A stretch of DNA of 5,152 bases, taken from assembly GCF_055900595.2 (NCBI RefSeq), contig NZ_JBVWEU010000009.1. One strand, 5' to 3'. This document shows positions 1 through 5,113 of this stretch, piece by piece; the stretch's first letter is position 1; each line of letters begins with the position of its first letter. The notes below the pieces were generated by a model. It made no database searches, had not been told where the DNA came from, and worked only from the letters and a program-made list of their open reading frames with translations. Source of the DNA: a plasmid. Made by a program: the position numbers and the translations under genes.

Positions 1-45
1 TGTGCATAATATAACCTTGTCTGCCTGCGTGTGAGACCGTAAAAT

Positions 46-110
46 CATCCCTGATTAATTCAGGGATGCGCACTTAGACGTTTCTCTCCTTCGTCGAGAA
101 ACAGTGCGCT
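46..110 (-). other. oriT: origin of transfer (oriT), RSF1010/R1162-like MOBQ nic region
   Basis: Read on the minus strand (plus 102 down to 47) the sequence is GTTTCTC-GACGAAGGA-GAGAAAC-GTC-TAAGTGCGC-ATCCCTG. That is a 7-bp inverted repeat (plus 80-86 / 96-102), 3 nt, then TAAGTGCGC (plus 68-76). This matches the nic core I recall for RSF1010 oriT (GTTTCTCGAAGAGAAACCGGTAAGTG|CGCCCT), including the 3-nt distance between repeat and TAAGTG. A second perfect 9-bp inverted repeat (46-54 catccctga / 60-68 tcagggatg, 5-nt spacer) lies just 3' of the predicted nick. Predicted nick is on the minus strand between plus coordinates 71 and 70. The site is 22 bp upstream of mobA. Confidence 0.6.
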
Positions 111-132
111 CCTGCGGAGGGCTTAACGGCAG

Positions 133-1227
133 ATGGCAAGCTACCATTGCACAGTTAAAACTGGAGCAAAAGGCGTAGCCTTAAAACATGCTGATTACAT
201 TTCCAGATCCGGCGAATATAAAAACTATAAATCGCGGGAGGATCTGGAATTTTCTTCATCCGGTAACATGCCATCATGGGCGAAGAAAAATCCCGCAGAA
301 CTGTGGAAAGCTGCTGATGAATTTGAACGAAAAAACGGGACGGCATACCGTGAAATTGAGATCGCATTACCGCGAGAACTGACACGTGAACAACGGATAG
401 AGCTTGTTGAAGATTTCGTGCAAAAGGAACTTGGTGATCGCCATGCCTATCAGTACGCGATCCACAATCCACCAGGTGCAATTGACGGGAAGGAACAGCC
501 ACACGCGCATATCATGTTTTGCGAACGGATTAATGATGGTATTGAACGCGATCCGCAGCAGTTTTTTAAACGTGCCAACAGCAAATCACCAGAGCGGGGA
601 GGCGCAAAAAAGGCACGCTTTGGCGAGACACAACAAGAGCGAAAATCAGCCCTGGTTGCGCTACGCTCTCACTGGGCTGATGTGCAGAATGAACACCTTG
701 CGCGACACGGCCACCAGTCGCGCGTTGATCATCGTTCGCTGAAAGAACAGGGTATCAAGCGTACGCCGGAGGTGCATCTTGGTCCCGTTCGTGTTGCTGT
801 TATGAACGCTGATCAGGTTTGTGCAATTCTGGCATGGAGAAATGCGGAACGGGAGAAGCTGGAGGCCGAGAAGGAACGGGACAGCATCATTGACCTTAAA
901 ACGACCTTGAAGGAAGCGTTAGCTGAACGGGATAACATGCCACCAACCCTGGATGAGCTTGGGGCAGAATTGAAAGCGTTTGTTGAAAGCTCGTTTGATG
1001 AACTCAATGAGGTAATGCAGCTTAATTCATTGATTGACGGTGCGCTGGACACAATGATGAAGCAATTCCAGGTGGAAGAGGAGCGGAAGCTGCAACAGGA
1101 ACGACTAATTCAGGCTGCGCGAGATGAAGCCGAAAAACAAAGAGAGCTGGAGAGGGAAAGAGTGCGCCGGCGTGCGTATTCTTCACCAGCACCATCACGT
1201 TCACGCGATTATGGTATGAGCCGTTAA
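133..1227 (+). CDS. mobA: mobilization relaxase MobA (MobA/MobL family, MOBQ)
   Basis: 364-aa ORF, ATG at 133 with GGAGG at 116-120. The N-terminus MASYHCTVKTGAKGVALKHADYISRSGEY has the conserved Tyr-containing motif of MobA/MobL relaxases (compare RSF1010 MobA), and a downstream His motif (QPHAHIMF) fits the metal-binding histidine cluster. The C-terminal half is charged and coiled-coil-like (EKLEAEKER, QRELERERVRRR). It sits directly downstream of the oriT-like site. G+C is near half, typical of an enterobacterial backbone. Confidence 0.88.
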   Translation: MASYHCTVKTGAKGVALKHADYISRSGEYKNYKSREDLEFSSSGNMPSWAKKNPAELWKAADEFERKNGTAYREIEIALPRELTREQRIELVEDFVQKELGDRHAYQYAIHNPPGAIDGKEQPHAHIMFCERINDGIERDPQQFFKRANSKSPERGGAKKARFGETQQERKSALVALRSHWADVQNEHLARHGHQSRVDHRSLKEQGIKRTPEVHLGPVRVAVMNADQVCAILAWRNAEREKLEAEKERDSIIDLKTTLKEALAERDNMPPTLDELGAELKAFVESSFDELNEVMQLNSLIDGALDTMMKQFQVEEERKLQQERLIQAARDEAEKQRELERERVRRRAYSSPAPSRSRDYGMSR

Positions 1228-1248
1228 GCACTGGAGGTTTTTTATTTT

Positions 1249-1965
1249 ATGCAATTGGATGAACATTCAAGAAAAATTGCTGCCCTTGTTGCGTATAATG
1301 AAAAGCAAATAAAAGAAATAAACAGGATAATTACTCTGCTTAATGAAAGAGTGAATGATTTAAATACCTTTACAGATACTCTTGAACGTGAAGGTAAAGT
1401 TGTATCTGGAATTTCTTATTCCTTGAGAGATAGTGTGTCTCATGTTGATTTTTATCTTAATAAAGGAATGGAAGAAGTATCCTGTAAATTACAGAAATCT
1501 GTCTCAGACACACTAACATCATTACTCCGTGAAAAATTATCTTTCACACTTAATGATGTAAGGCAAGAGTGGACTGATTTTGAAGAGCAAACAAGTAAAG
1601 AGATAAAGGAATCATTAAAGCAGACGACCAGAGATGCTGAAGTTGCGACAGGTATAATTAGAAAAATAATGGAAAAGTATACAGTAACAAGGATAGTCGA
1701 AAAGGTAATTGTGTTACTTGTGTTATTTTTATTACTAATGATAGCACCTGGTTTCTATGCTGAATATCTCAAAATGAATATCGGTTCTCTAATGGAAGAA
1801 CAGAAAAAACATGAATCTATGTTAAAAGAGTGGAAGGAAAAAGCACCATTGGCAGAGTTCTCTAAGTGTGGAGAGTATAGGGAAGCATGTGTGTTAGTTG
1901 ATGATAAAAGCGGATATTATTATGATGAACAAACTCCAAATAAAAAATATGCCATACTGAAATAG
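1249..1965 (+). CDS. hypothetical bitopic membrane protein (N-terminal coiled-coil domain, one transmembrane helix, small Cys-containing C-terminal domain); AT-rich cargo gene
   Basis: 238-aa ORF. ATG at 1249 is preceded by GGAGG at 1233-1237 and starts 21 nt after the mobA stop codon (TAA 1225-1227), with no obvious promoter in between. The N-terminal ~145 aa are rich in K/E with heptad-like spacing (EKQIKEINRIITLLNERVNDLN). One strongly hydrophobic segment (IVEKVIVLLVLFLLLMIAPGFYAEYL) follows, then a ~70-aa tail with two Cys (SKCGEYREAC) and a YYYDE motif. Codon usage is visibly AT-rich, about one-third G+C by eye, unlike mobA and rep. I recognise no family. Confidence 0.6.
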   Translation: MQLDEHSRKIAALVAYNEKQIKEINRIITLLNERVNDLNTFTDTLEREGKVVSGISYSLRDSVSHVDFYLNKGMEEVSCKLQKSVSDTLTSLLREKLSFTLNDVRQEWTDFEEQTSKEIKESLKQTTRDAEVATGIIRKIMEKYTVTRIVEKVIVLLVLFLLLMIAPGFYAEYLKMNIGSLMEEQKKHESMLKEWKEKAPLAEFSKCGEYREACVLVDDKSGYYYDEQTPNKKYAILK

Positions 1966-2120
1966 TGTTAAGTAACTCATTCCGCCTTATGACTAAGGCT
2001 GCATGAGTATAAAAACTAAAAATAAATGCCCGTACCTAAAAAATGGAACTACATATACTTATGTACCTTGAGAATGACGGAGTTAATTTATCCTTTGTTG
2101 TCAAATTTTTGACCCAAACA

Positions 2121-2160
2121 GGGGCCGCTTGGTAGGGTATCTGAACTCCAATCGGTCCCC
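2121..2160 (-). terminator. candidate intrinsic terminator / GC-rich imperfect hairpin downstream of the minus-strand cargo gene
   Basis: On the minus strand, just after the stop codon (complement of 2172-2174), the sequence GGGGACCGATTGG-(15 nt)-CCAAGCGGCCCC forms an imperfect ~11-bp stem (one bulge, one mismatch) followed by UGUUUGGGUC. It is a GC-rich island in an otherwise AT-rich intergenic region between two convergent genes. The T-tract is weak, so this is only a candidate. Confidence 0.3.
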
Positions 2161-2171
2161 TCATAATGCCT

Positions 2172-2969
2172 TTATGTATTGAATTCTAATACAGGGTCGA
2201 ATTGAAACATGTCATTAAAATAACATAGTGCTGGATTACTAAATGTAATTGGTTCTGCTTCGGTATTTAGGTAATCCAACCATTCATAATAATCTTTTTT
2301 AAATTGCGTGTATGTTTCTTTTGTCATTGGTTTGAATTGATAACCAAAAGTTGTATGAAATCTATATGTGTCATGGTTTTTATGTTTCACTCCTGTTATT
2401 TCAGCAACGGAATTTCTAAAGTTGATTAGTATTTCTTTATCTGAGTTGCTTGCAGGAATTAAAGGTATAATAAAGGCTGGTTGTTTATTATCGTCCCACT
2501 CTGGAGGTAGCGATGGTGTAGATTTTAGATCTACCTTCATTGTAACAGGTTTTTCAAATCCTATTTGTTTATTTTTAAGTGTATTTGCAATTAACTTTGT
2601 CGCTTCCTCCATGCTTATATTCGTGGGGGTGTTATAAGGCCAAGGATTTTTTCTATCGCCACTAATTAAAGAAATGATAGTCATGTGATAAGAGTTTGGA
2701 GGTAATAACACAATGCAATCACCAAAATCTCGTTGAATTCGAACCTGAATATTAAGCATTGCTTTAAATAAATTGCTGTCTTTATCTGTATGGCAGATTA
2801 CGGAACATCCTTTATATTGTGCAACCTTTCCATTGCGATAAAATTTTGCGCCCTTATCAAGACCGTTGTTTTGTGCTATTTCGCATCGATTATTTTCAGC
2901 AAAAACAGTATTAGATGTTATTGCTGCTGTTACTAATGCGGAAGATTTTATAAATGTTCTTCTGTCCAT
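2172..2969 (-). CDS. Tat-signal (twin-arginine) exported protein with 2H phosphoesterase (LigT-like) motifs; AT-rich cargo gene
   Basis: The minus-strand ORF track starts at 3029, but the preferred start is the ATG at 2969 (complement of 2967-2969), preceded by AAGGAA 7 nt upstream. It gives MDRRTFIKSSALVTAAITSNTVFA-ENN: a twin-arginine motif (RRxFIK), a hydrophobic h-region and an A-x-A-like cleavage site (VFA), i.e. a Tat signal peptide. The mature part carries two H-x-T-x motifs flanked by hydrophobics, about 110 aa apart: LLPPNSYHMTIISL and YRFHTTFGYQF. This is the signature of the 2H phosphoesterase superfamily, and the first motif resembles the PPENLH-hydrophobic-T-L segment I recall in LigT. 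G+C is about one-third by eye. Confidence 0.6.
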   Translation of the reverse strand: MDRRTFIKSSALVTAAITSNTVFAENNRCEIAQNNGLDKGAKFYRNGKVAQYKGCSVICHTDKDSNLFKAMLNIQVRIQRDFGDCIVLLPPNSYHMTIISLISGDRKNPWPYNTPTNISMEEATKLIANTLKNKQIGFEKPVTMKVDLKSTPSLPPEWDDNKQPAFIIPLIPASNSDKEILINFRNSVAEITGVKHKNHDTYRFHTTFGYQFKPMTKETYTQFKKDYYEWLDYLNTEAEPITFSNPALCYFNDMFQFDPVLEFNT

Positions 2970-3014
2970 AACAGATTCCTTATTAGTGAATGTGAGTTTC
3001 TTCTTCATTAGAAG

Positions 3015-3042
3015 AATGTAAAAAAACATAAATAAAAGTCAA
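3015..3042 (-). promoter_or_regulatory. candidate sigma70 promoter for the Tat/2H-like gene
   Basis: On the minus strand: TTGACT (complement of 3037-3042), a 16-nt AT-rich spacer, then TACATT (complement of 3015-3020). This lies about 45 nt upstream of the ATG at 2969. The alternative in-frame ATGs at 3029 and 3008 would fall inside or abut this promoter and lack a Shine-Dalgarno sequence. Confidence 0.3.
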
Positions 3043-3237
3043 ACGGTAAAAAACGCCTAGGGGCTTTCACGAAACAAACGGATTTGTACGCTGAACTTTG
3101 ACGTCACCCCGTTTGGGGGAAACTCATCAGAACGCTATATCAAATTCCCGCAAAGGACTTCTCATCCAGGGGAGAAAATTTGTCATTTTGACCCGTTCGC
3201 CGTTCTGTACGGTCGAAACCGATCGCGCATCGCTTTC

Positions 3238-3439: not shown

Positions 3440-3555
3440 GAAAAACAAACGCCCCTGAAATCATGTCCAGATCCGGCAAGATTCAACATGAAATACAGGG
3501 GCGAGGTCGGTCGATAACCTGGAAGGAATCGTAACACATGAGCGCCGCGCTTCAA
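3440..3555 (-). ncRNA. candidate antisense RNA (ColE2 RNAI-like copy-number control RNA) complementary to the rep leader
   Basis: A long interrupted hairpin in the rep leader: gcccctg (3451-3457) pairs with caggggc (3496-3502), and the inner arms tcatgt (3461-3466) pair with acatga (3486-3491). On the minus strand the stem is followed directly by GUUUGUUUUUC (complement of about 3440-3450), the shape of an intrinsic terminator for a minus-strand transcript. ColE2-type replicons are known to control Rep translation with a roughly 115-nt antisense RNA against the leader. The 5' end and promoter are not resolved, so the boundaries are approximate. Confidence 0.4.
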
Positions 3556-4473
3556 TACTTCGACGAAAATTTACCCCACCGTCCCTATCACACGGATGAT
3601 CTCGCTTTTGGTCTTCGCATCTCCGGCAAAGGGCGTGCGCTTCTTGCGCGGTACATACAGCAGAACCAGCCTCATGCGCAGTTCTGGCTGGTTTTTGACG
3701 TTGACCGCGAGGGGGCAGCGATTGACTGGAGTGACCGGAACGCTCCCGCGCCGAACATCACCGTAAAAAATCCTGTGAACGGTCATGCTCACCTGCTCTA
3801 CGCGCTCAATATCGCCGTGAGAACCGCGCCGGACAGCTCGGTTAAGGCGCTGAAATACGCCGCTGCGATTGAACGTTCGCTGTGTGAGAAACTTTGTGCT
3901 GATGTGAACTACAGCGGACTGATTTGCAAAAATCCGTTCCACCTGGAATGGCAGGTGATGGAGTGGCGCGAGGAAGCCTATACCCTCGATGAACTGGCAG
4001 ATTATCTCGATTTGAGCGCCTCAGCGCGTCGTAGCATCGATAAACATTACGGGATGGGGCGAAACTGCCACCTGTTCGAAATGACGCGCAAATGGGCTTA
4101 CAGGGCGATTCGTCAGGGCTGGCCAGCATTCTCACAGTGGCTTGATGCCGTGATTCAGCGTGTCGAAATGTACAACGCATCGCTTCCCGTTCCGCTTTCT
4201 CCGGCTGAATGTCGGGCTATTGGCAGGAGCATTGCGAAATACACGCACAGGAACTTCACGCCGGAAACTTTCGCACAGTATGTGGCTGATACGCACACAC
4301 CAGAAATACAGGCCAAGAGAGGCCGGAAAGGTGGTATCGCTAAAGGCGAAGCCTACGATGACAAGCGTTTCATGGCGCTATGTATGCTGGATAATGGATA
4401 TTCTCAGAAAGCTATTGCGGCGATGCTGAATGTACATCGTAATACGATCCGTAATTGGGCAATGCACAAATAG
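3538..4473 (+). CDS. rep: ColE2-type replication initiator Rep (plasmid-specific primase-like initiator)
   Basis: 311-aa ORF, ATG at 3538 with AAGGA at 3523-3527. The N-terminus MSAALQYFDENLPHRPYHTDDLAFGLRISGKGRALLARYIQQNQPHAQFWLVFDVDREGAAIDWSDRNAPAPNITVKNP closely matches what I recall of ColE2-P9 Rep (MSAVLQRFREKLPHKPY...QNQPHA...DWSDRN.PAPNITVKNP). The C-terminus has a helix-turn-helix-like segment (YSQKAIAAMLNVHRNTIRNW). The origin motif follows directly after the stop codon, as in ColE2. G+C is near or above half. Confidence 0.9.
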   Translation: MSAALQYFDENLPHRPYHTDDLAFGLRISGKGRALLARYIQQNQPHAQFWLVFDVDREGAAIDWSDRNAPAPNITVKNPVNGHAHLLYALNIAVRTAPDSSVKALKYAAAIERSLCEKLCADVNYSGLICKNPFHLEWQVMEWREEAYTLDELADYLDLSASARRSIDKHYGMGRNCHLFEMTRKWAYRAIRQGWPAFSQWLDAVIQRVEMYNASLPVPLSPAECRAIGRSIAKYTHRNFTPETFAQYVADTHTPEIQAKRGRKGGIAKGEAYDDKRFMALCMLDNGYSQKAIAAMLNVHRNTIRNWAMHK

Positions 4474-4515
4474 CCTATATCAGATAACAGCGCCTTTTCG
4501 GCGTCTTTTTGAGCA
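4474..4515 (+). other. ori: ColE2-type origin of replication (Rep binding and priming site)
   Basis: cctatATCAGATAACAGCGCCttttcGGCGTCTTTTTGAGCAg starts right after the rep stop codon (TAG 4471-4473). It matches the conserved ColE2/ColE3 ori core as I recall it (CCTTATCAGATAACAGCGCCCTTTTGGCGTCTTTTTGAGCA) with a few substitutions. Confidence 0.7.
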
Positions 4516-4666: not shown

Positions 4667-5113
4667 TTACGCACTGTCTTTGGTTAGTAGCTTCTTCCCG
4701 CGTCTTTCCCATTCCTGCCATTTTGGATGGTTGCGCGGTAGCTCTGCGATTCCTGCGAGTGCGCCTACCAGTTCGGCAGCACTACACTTTGGTTTTCCGG
4801 TTTTGCTGTCCACCAGTCCTGCCACAATCATGAGGCCTGCGGCCTTGTAGAGTTCATGATCCCGCGCTTTTCGTTCCGCCCTTGCGGCTGCCTTCCGTTC
4901 TGCCGCTATGATTGCCGTTACCCTGGCTTTTGCTGCGGCTGCTTTCTCTGCGGTTTTTTCTGCCCGTATCAGTGCGGATAACGTTTTTTCATCCGTCGTT
5001 GTTCGGTTTTTTTTCTCTGCCAGTAACACAAGTAATCTCTGCTGCTCTGACGGTGATTTCAGTCCGTTGATGTAGGCAATTTTTGCACTTAACCACTCTT
5101 CACGATTTGTCAT
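4667..5113 (-). CDS. mobC: MobC-like mobilization accessory protein (divergent from mobA across oriT if the molecule is circular)
   Basis: 148-aa minus-strand ORF. ATG is the complement of 5111-5113, with GAGGT 5 nt upstream. The protein is Ala/Lys/Arg/Glu-rich and helical (EKTAEKAAAAKARVTAIIAAERKAAARAERKARDHELYKAAGLMIVAGL, ELVGALAGIAELPRNHP), like the small oriT-binding accessory proteins found beside MOBQ relaxases. Its start is 39 bp from the window end; joining the end to the start puts it divergent from mobA with oriT between them, as mobC/oriT/mobA is arranged in RSF1010-type plasmids. The family call rests on position and composition, not on a recognised motif. Confidence 0.5.
   Translation of the reverse strand: MTNREEWLSAKIAYINGLKSPSEQQRLLVLLAEKKNRTTTDEKTLSALIRAEKTAEKAAAAKARVTAIIAAERKAAARAERKARDHELYKAAGLMIVAGLVDSKTGKPKCSAAELVGALAGIAELPRNHPKWQEWERRGKKLLTKDSA

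Follow-up and report, generated by a model that had tools for sequence, protein, structure and literature searches.

The mob genes and oriT of pSC101 were reportedly characterised in Meyer 2000 (J Bacteriol 182:4875). The MobA protein of this plasmid is cited as acting in trans on oriT (Meyer 2000, as cited in PMC6856555). The RSF1010 substrate reads CAGTTTCTCGAAGAGAAACCGGTAAGTGCG/CCCTCCC, where the slash marks nic (PMC4814116). In RSF1010 the nick lies 8 nt from a 10-bp repeat, which corresponds to 11 nt from the GAGAAAC arm. For MOBQ plasmids an oriT consensus, NWACCNNTAAGTGCGCCCTYNN, is quoted from Francia et al. 2004 in PMC3832669, and ColE2-P9 is listed among closely related mobilization modules (PMC3832669). 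The oriT of Ti plasmids is related to that of RSF1010 and lies between traA and traCDG in the arrangement traAFBH/traCDG (PMC4700958); TraA, TraC and TraD are reported to autorepress the divergent promoters that flank this oriT (Cho & Winans 2007). In the MOBQ4 plasmids pIGWZ12 and ColE9-J, the divergent mobA and accessory genes stand 178 bp apart with oriT in the gap, the accessory MobC has fewer than 100 aa and lacks homology to known accessory proteins, and the relaxase's C-terminal part is SogL-like (PMC6856555).

Here we describe a site of this kind in a plasmid stretch of 5,152 nt, called the window throughout, which denotes the whole stretch of DNA that was analysed. Judged from its sequence, the region at positions 46 to 110 very probably forms the core of the plasmid's oriT, of MOBQ1 (RSF1010/R1162-pSC101) type and with the mechanism proposed below. 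An initial annotation had called this site an RSF1010-like oriT, an identification supported by motif and spacing, gene order, relaxase homology and conservation. The site is an ordinary, previously unannotated member of the well-studied RSF1010/pSC101 oriT class.

The plasmid and its mobilization genes

Joining the ends of the window yields a 171-bp intergenic sequence that matches another plasmid at 171 of 171 positions in one piece. Since this single match runs across the joined ends, the window is circular, and on this sequence evidence it is a complete plasmid of the ColE2/Col156 type. Related records that share its gene order have been typed as carrying a Col156 replicon and a relaxase of MOBQ type. 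The genes are as follows:

133 to 1227, plus strand: mobA, MOBQ1-type relaxase of 364 aa (Pfam MobA_MobL, E = 1.7e-38)
1249 to 1965, plus strand: mobX-like gene downstream of mobA, 238 aa, one predicted membrane helix
2172 to 3029, minus strand: cargo gene
3538 to 4473, plus strand: ColE2-type rep
4667 to 5113, minus strand: TraD-like relaxosome accessory gene, 148 aa (Pfam PF06412 TraD, E = 2.8e-8)

The oriT site lies in the 171-bp gap, with mobA on one side and the divergent TraD-like gene on the other. The mobA start at 133 is 22 nt past position 110, in agreement with the distance of about 22 bp given earlier, and 30 nt past the end of the first inverted repeat, IR1, at 102. Among 5,426 complete E. 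coli genomes, 948 contain the backbone at least in part, and no record in PLSDB or among the complete E. coli genomes covers 80% or more of the window. A search of the whole window against Rfam returned zero RNA families above threshold.

In its relaxase domain, the window MobA shares 45% identity with RSF1010 MobA (222 aa aligned), and it matches the crystal structure of the latter (PDB 2NS6) with E = 3.6e-37. Its residues Y22, E74, E76, H111, H124 and H126 align with Y25, E74, E76, H112, H120 and H122 of R1162, the catalytic residues listed in PMC6856555. Identity to pSC101 MobA is 51% overall, and the mobX-like protein is 30% identical to pSC101 MobX (E = 3e-13). Pfam reported no domain beyond the relaxase in the 364-aa MobA. 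Homologues of the TraD-like protein, with 30-97% identity, are encoded at the same position in pSC101 and in all relatives examined, and the counterpart on a pSC101-type plasmid is about 55% identical. Comparison of the TraD-like protein with RSF1010 MobC showed no homology (BLASTP E = 0.19; hhalign E = 0.035, probability 1.5%), and RSF1010 MobC itself gave no match in the Pfam search. Of the features of a MOBQ1 oriT, the nic core, the distance between inverted repeat and predicted nick, the adjacent relaxase with Tyr and His triad, and the divergent accessory gene are present.

The nic region, its hairpin and the predicted nicked strand

An inverted-repeat and motif search located both repeats and the nic core of the initial annotation at the coordinates given there, and added a third perfect inverted repeat in positions 1-200, 68-74/103-109 (GCGCACT/AGTGCGC), which was absent from that list. 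The elements of the intergenic region are:

6 to 35, minus strand: candidate promoter of the TraD-like gene, CTCACA, 16 or 18 nt, TATATT or TATTAT (weak, from a consensus scan only)
17 to 45, plus strand: candidate mobA promoter from the consensus scan, TTGTCT (17-22), 17 nt, TAAAAT (40-45)
46 to 68, minus strand: second inverted repeat, IR2, CATCCCTGA-ATTAA-TCAGGGATG as read on the minus strand, its first base directly 3' of the predicted nick
68 to 76, minus strand: nic core TAAGTGCGC, an exact match, with the identical 9-mer in the RSF1010-type oriT
77 to 79, minus strand: 3-nt spacer, GTC, separating IR1 from the nic core
80 to 102, minus strand: IR1, hairpin for relaxase recognition on the 5' side of the nick, arms 80-86/96-102 (GTTTCTC/GAGAAAC) with 9 nt between them
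87 to 95, minus strand: IR1 centre, GACGAAGGA as read on the minus strand
103 to 109, minus strand: inverted nic-core copy GCGCACT, complementary to 68-74
109 to 120, plus strand: small hairpin CTCC (109-112)/GGAG (116-119) in the predicted single-stranded fold

The minus strand reads GTTTCTC-GACGAAGGA-GAGAAAC-GTC-TAAGTGCGC from 102 down to 68, and the complete site reads GCGCACT-GTTTCTC-GACGAAGGA-GAGAAAC-GTC-TAAGTGCGC-ATCCCTGA-ATTAA-TCAGGGATG. Alignment with the RSF1010 oriT, which had been suggested as a check, gave identical arms, the same spacer length of 3 nt and the identical 9-mer. The core agrees with the MOBQ consensus at 9 of 9 positions and AAC stands ahead of the spacer, whereas the 3' flank of the nick is CATC (ATCC against the consensus) and departs from the CCCT of MOBQ. 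Because the published RSF1010 nick is TAAGTGCG/CCCT, the homologous nick here is predicted as TAAGTGCG/C, between G69 and C68 of the minus strand. The initial annotation had placed it at TAAGTG/CGC, which is 2 nt off; the position homologous to RSF1010 lies 2 nt further 3' (PMC4814116). The spacing agrees as well, with GAGAAAC-GTC-TAAGTGCG/C in the window and GAGAAAC-CGG-TAAGTGCG/C in RSF1010. C68, the first base past the predicted nick, is also the first base of the 9-bp post-nick repeat.

The 9 nt counted earlier as the loop of IR1 are indeed found between its arms, but relatives have in their place a longer stem closed by a GAA loop. In the relatives the stem continues into the centre with Watson-Crick pairs whose sequence differs, and the loop is GAA, TT or TA (for example CAAT-GAA-ATTG, CCAC-GAA-GTGG and CGGC-TT-GCCG), while the upper part in the window is not Watson-Crick and has, on either side of GAA, a single C-G pair and two mismatches of the G/A type. 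GTTTCT/AGAAAC is kept across the family, and the spacer has a constant length of 3 nt in the relatives with varying sequence (GTC, TAC, ATA, AAC, CGG). At its base IR1 has T.G here and a CCAG/CCGG extension in RSF1010, so that cross-recognition by RSF1010 MobA is not assured.

The comparison set consisted of 34 unique oriT sequences from plasmid loci and genome matches. For the former, 14 plasmid loci with MobA relatives of 48-94% identity were fetched; for the latter, one genome per species was scanned for AGAAACNNNTAAGYGCGC. The scan gave 120 genome matches, of which 23 also have the GTTTCT arm and the 97 without a left arm were treated as chance. The 23 further genomes with core and arm come from several phyla. 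The core TAAGYGCGC was present in 14 of 15 fetched plasmid loci, and in 11 of the 12 plasmid loci that carry the module (MobA 55-94% identical) it lies 53-56 nt from the mobA ATG. It occurs farther from mobA in an Acinetobacter plasmid (L011) and in the RSF1010-type record, for which NC_016859 was used, and no nic core was found in the fetched plasmid locus L016. A 38-nt RSF1010 oriT query matched 123 plasmid records at 99% identity or more, at least 15 of them at 100%, including IncQ1 plasmids of 8.7 kb. A related oriT region occurs in 681 plasmid records, and in 94 of these the match extends over most of the 171 bp. Where public records show this region, the oriT site carries no annotation.

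Short motifs recur, and a resemblance to the RSF1010 oriT could in principle be fortuitous: most genome matches to AGAAACNNNTAAGYGCGC (97 of 120) lack the left arm, and the bare 9-mer TAAGTGCGC with up to one mismatch is not rare, since at least two matches arise in 77 of 200 shuffles, so that it is not significant alone. However, the composite GTTTCTC-N(3-12)-GAGAAAC-NNN-TAAGTGCGC, which occurs once in the window, had 0 matches in 200 shuffles, and the site occupies exactly the place at which a MOBQ oriT should stand, with conservation throughout the family; the probability of a chance origin is practically negligible. A nick in the plus strand instead might be considered, as the site is nearly palindromic and a GTGCGC hexamer stands beside the same hairpin on both strands; the plus strand, too, reads GTTTCTC...GAGAAAC followed by AGTGCGC (96-109). 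The plus-strand copy nevertheless lacks the TA of TAAGTGCGC, and its GTGCGC starts 1 nt after the arm, directly behind the repeat, rather than after 5 nt. Agreement with RSF1010 in sequence as well as spacing is confined to the minus-strand copy, the full core lies opposite the mobA strand in RSF1010 and in every relative, and the start of IR2 at +1 holds for a minus-strand nick only. We therefore regard cleavage of the plus strand as extremely improbable. Motif, spacing, gene arrangement, relaxase and positional conservation all agree with the minus strand as the predicted nicked strand, as the initial annotation had it.

On this assignment, MobA would bind the base of IR1 together with the adjoining single-stranded stretch, and its Tyr22 would cut the minus strand between G69 and C68 and remain on the 5' end. 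The coupling protein and type IV secretion system of a helper plasmid would then export the minus strand in 5' to 3' direction, and transfer into the recipient would begin with the side of the TraD-like gene and end with mobA. Once IR1/nic is regenerated, the circle would be closed again there by a second cleavage-joining reaction.

With oriT, strand and nick assigned, a very common class of small enterobacterial plasmids becomes annotatable as mobilizable, and cleavage and mobilization can be tested on a substrate that is defined. The palindrome at nick+1 and the pairing between nic core and upstream copy, both treated below, are modest testable additions concerning how accessory proteins or DNA structure position MOBQ relaxases. 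Nothing in the oriT finding challenges current understanding, and it holds no surprise for a specialist.

The post-nick repeat, the upstream nic-core copy and proposed control of the mob genes

The arms of IR2 (46-54/60-68, CATCCCTGA/TCAGGGATG) are 9 nt long, 100% complementary and 5 nt apart. The perfect 9-bp repeat past the nick is thus present as first described, but it marks no departure from RSF1010, where an imperfect repeat with 9 of 11 positions paired likewise starts at nick+1. Among the 34 unique family sequences, 27 have a perfect repeat of at least 5 bp from exactly nick+1 (2.5% under the null) and 21 a repeat of at least 7 bp (null 0.1%). The position is kept while the sequence is not: 19 distinct left arms occur in the family, and in one example of a compensated change CCCTGATAA/TTATCAGGG stands against CACTGATAA/TTATCAGTG. 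The sequence of IR2 shifts together with the divergence of the TraD-like accessory protein. The half-site CCCTGA/TCAGGG is common to the window and pSC101, with the halves 5 nt apart in the former and 15 nt in the latter.

From these patterns, IR2 is probably the operator or binding site of the TraD-like protein. Bound there, the protein may help to open the nick region, and it may also cover the transcription start of mobA (-10 at 40-45), which would result in autoregulation. Such control would parallel the autorepression of the divergent promoters in Ti plasmids. Since only 171 bp separate the two genes, the region must contain or overlap both promoters, and the overlap of promoters and relaxosome proposed in the initial annotation is plausible; autoregulation of the mob genes would be in keeping with it. 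The candidate -10 element of mobA adjoins IR2, and the candidate promoter of the TraD-like gene is interleaved with that of mobA. Over the whole window the consensus scan gave 9 promoter sites against 9.3 expected, which is not above chance. On the mobA-sense strand, 14 of 19 distinct relatives have a TAnnnT hexamer adjoining IR2, compared with about 16% by chance.

IR2 could also work as a hairpin, be it in single-stranded DNA or in a cruciform, rather than as a duplex binding site for the TraD-like protein. It would then, together with IR1, leave about 11 nt around the nick unpaired, or it would mark the 5' end for termination. It suits this role that in most relatives the first transferred base is exactly where the repeat starts; folding of single-stranded DNA predicts IR1 and IR2 as adjacent hairpins, and a few imperfect versions have G.T pairs on the nicked strand. 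The mismatch types (2 G.T, 1 A.C and 6 other) are too few cases, however, and IR2 tracks the divergence of the accessory protein in its sequence. Moreover, spacings of 5 and 15 nt place the shared half-sites one helical turn apart, and therefore a dimeric duplex-binding protein fits better than a hairpin. We consider the hairpin role a serious contender, albeit the less probable one. A more radical reading takes the palindromes as transcriptional control only, as operator or attenuator of the divergent promoters, with the nic-like sequence an uncut relic. The confined space between the genes, the -10-like hexamer next to IR2 and the small predicted hairpin over the mobA ribosome-binding site would be accommodated by it. 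Yet the core and its exact distance to IR1 are kept where MobA is only 45-60% identical and the flanks are otherwise unalignable, and the neighbouring gene encodes an intact relaxase that keeps every catalytic residue. Regulation and nicking are in any case compatible, as both occur at the same place in Ti plasmids, and a purely regulatory role is very unlikely.

The nic-core copy at 103-109 could pair with the nic core in single-stranded DNA, and in the predicted fold it forms an extended hairpin together with IR1, with a 5-nt bulge. As single-stranded DNA the 86-nt region folds with z = -4.9 and -5.5 for the two strands, and 0 of 200 shuffles fold as well. In 28 of the 34 unique sequences, compared with 6.5% of shuffles, the 12-nt stretch upstream of IR1 is complementary to the nic region over at least 5 bp, with GCGCAC facing GTGCGC or CGCGC facing GCGCG as pairing partners. 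T or C in the nic core covaries with A or G in the upstream copy; this apparently maps to a single split on the MobA tree and is therefore counted as about one compensated change, not as repeated compensation. The small hairpin predicted at 109-120 overlaps the mobA Shine-Dalgarno sequence GGAGG (116-120), and relatives have different but complementary sequences at this place.

It is conceivable, though rather doubtful, that the oriT of the pSC101/RSF1010 relaxase family follows a three-hairpin rule, with a variable palindrome at the first transferred nucleotide and a nic core paired with its own inverted copy beyond the recognition hairpin. If it were true, the structure of single-stranded or extruded DNA would mask the cleavage site or present it, and might for example gate initiation versus termination, or couple nicking to the expression of mobA.

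Relation to known MOBQ systems

The Ti plasmids (MOBQ2) have a TraD in the same Pfam family, PF06412, as the accessory protein of the window. Unlike the window, Ti plasmids have a conjugative system under quorum control, in which the relaxase-helicase TraA is large and TraC is present in addition; the likeness of the two is taken from the literature. The MOBQ4 group resembles the window in consisting of small enterobacterial mobilizable plasmids, some with ColE2/Col156 replicons. Membership in this group was nevertheless rejected because accessory protein and relaxase architecture differ: a 148-aa accessory protein of the TraD family and a 364-aa MobA of MOBQ1/pSC101-like type set the window apart from the description of that family. 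The paper on pSNC3-Kan (PMC9282650) was set aside, as it concerns ColE1-type plasmids and is irrelevant here.

The likeness to RSF1010/R1162 stated in the initial annotation holds, with the amendment that it is pSC101, and not RSF1010, that comes nearest among characterised relatives, given the shared module. The RSF1010 oriT, GTTTCTC-GAA-GAGAAAC-CGG-TAAGTGCGC, has 7-bp arms, a 3-nt spacer length and a 9-nt core as in the window, and it is likewise flanked by mobA and a divergent accessory gene, on strands arranged as in the window. From repeat to nic the site runs toward mobC, which is encoded on the same strand, with mobA behind it, and the TraD-like gene takes the place of mobC in the window. 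RSF1010 also has an upstream GCGCAC copy, about 30 nt farther away than in the window. Its IR1 differs in that the loop has 3 nt and the stem reaches 10 bp through an extension at the base (CCAG/CCGG), and the nick is followed by CCCT. The accessory protein of RSF1010 is the 94-aa MobC, with no demonstrable homology to the 148-aa TraD-like protein, and its MobA is fused to a primase and comprises 709 aa compared to 364 aa in the window. The distance from oriT to mobA is 103 nt in RSF1010 and 56 nt here.

By sequence and gene content, the closest characterised system is pSC101. A TraD-family gene, oriT, mobA and mobX follow one another in the window in this order, and pSC101 has the same TraD-like/oriT/mobA/mobX module in the same gene order and orientation. 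The two plasmids differ in replicon, the window having a Rep of ColE2/Col156 type, in the centre of IR1 and in the cargo gene. The pSC101 oriT reads GCGCAC-GTTTCT-GAACGAAGTGA-AGAAAG-TC-TAAGTGCG/C-CCTGATAA-...-TTATCAGG-G and shares the layout of the window site, with GCGCAC, GTTTCT...AGAAA(C), a spacer, TAAGTGCG/C and a 9-bp repeat from +1.

Features from the mobA ribosome-binding site to the rep downstream region

The following elements lie in the window:

109-120: small predicted hairpin CTCC/GGAG, overlapping the mobA ribosome-binding site
1249-1965 (+): distant MobX homologue, the next gene after mobA (30% identity to pSC101 MobX, E = 3e-13)
2172-3029 (-): cargo ORF of 285 aa, inside a low-GC block (~1200-3050)
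within 4474-4506: tatcagataacagcgcc, immediately past the rep stop codon
4490-4504: terminator-like hairpin downstream of rep

At the place of the CTCC/GGAG hairpin, relatives carry other sequences that are likewise self-complementary. Since the hairpin overlaps the ribosome-binding site and this self-complementarity recurs in the relatives, translation of mobA may be controlled by structure. The tatcagataacagcgcc stretch after rep appears to resemble the ColE2-type replication origin.

Composition of the mobX-like and cargo genes

The MobX-like protein contains a single hydrophobic helix, and the GC content of its gene (~33%) is far below that of mobA, which suggests a mosaic origin. Around the cargo ORF the GC content is 30-36%, compared to about 50-55% for the plasmid backbone. 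The cargo product matches the DUF1868/2H-phosphodiesterase domain at E = 8.5e-21, and its predicted twin-arginine signal is weak. In a search of the plasmid collection, the cargo ORF region past its first 139 nt was without a near match, and in the closest backbones a LysE-family gene replaces the ORF at the same place.

A putative recombinant oriT

Locus L126, which was found by the nic-core scan and has an Acinetobacter-like context, combines the T-type nic core TAAGTGCG, i.e. the T variant of TAAGYGCGC, with the upstream sequence CGTGCTTAG, the latter being typical of Acinetobacter oriTs. Through this combination the outer stem, in which the nic core pairs with its upstream inverted copy, contains two G.T pairs. 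Because a T-type core is joined to an Acinetobacter-type upstream sequence, while the MobA of L126 clusters with the T-type clade, this oriT may be recombinant.

Comparison with the oriTs of pSC101 and RSF1010

At the right arm of the hairpin 5' of the nick, the pSC101 record (L017, NC_002056; region 4094-4104) has AGAAAG-TC, whereas pSC101-like relatives have AGAAAC-GTC; the one-base difference in this arm may be an error in this old sequence. The post-nick repeats of the window (46-68) and pSC101 (L017 4108-4138) have the half-site CCCTGA/TCAGGG in common, but the half-sites are separated by 5 nt in the window and by 15 nt in pSC101, a difference of one helical turn. The RSF1010-type plasmid L002 carries an imperfect 11-position inverted repeat, CCCTCCCCTAC-AAA-GTAGGGTCGGG (2530-2554; 9/11 pairs), starting at the first base past the published RSF1010 nick (PMC4814116).
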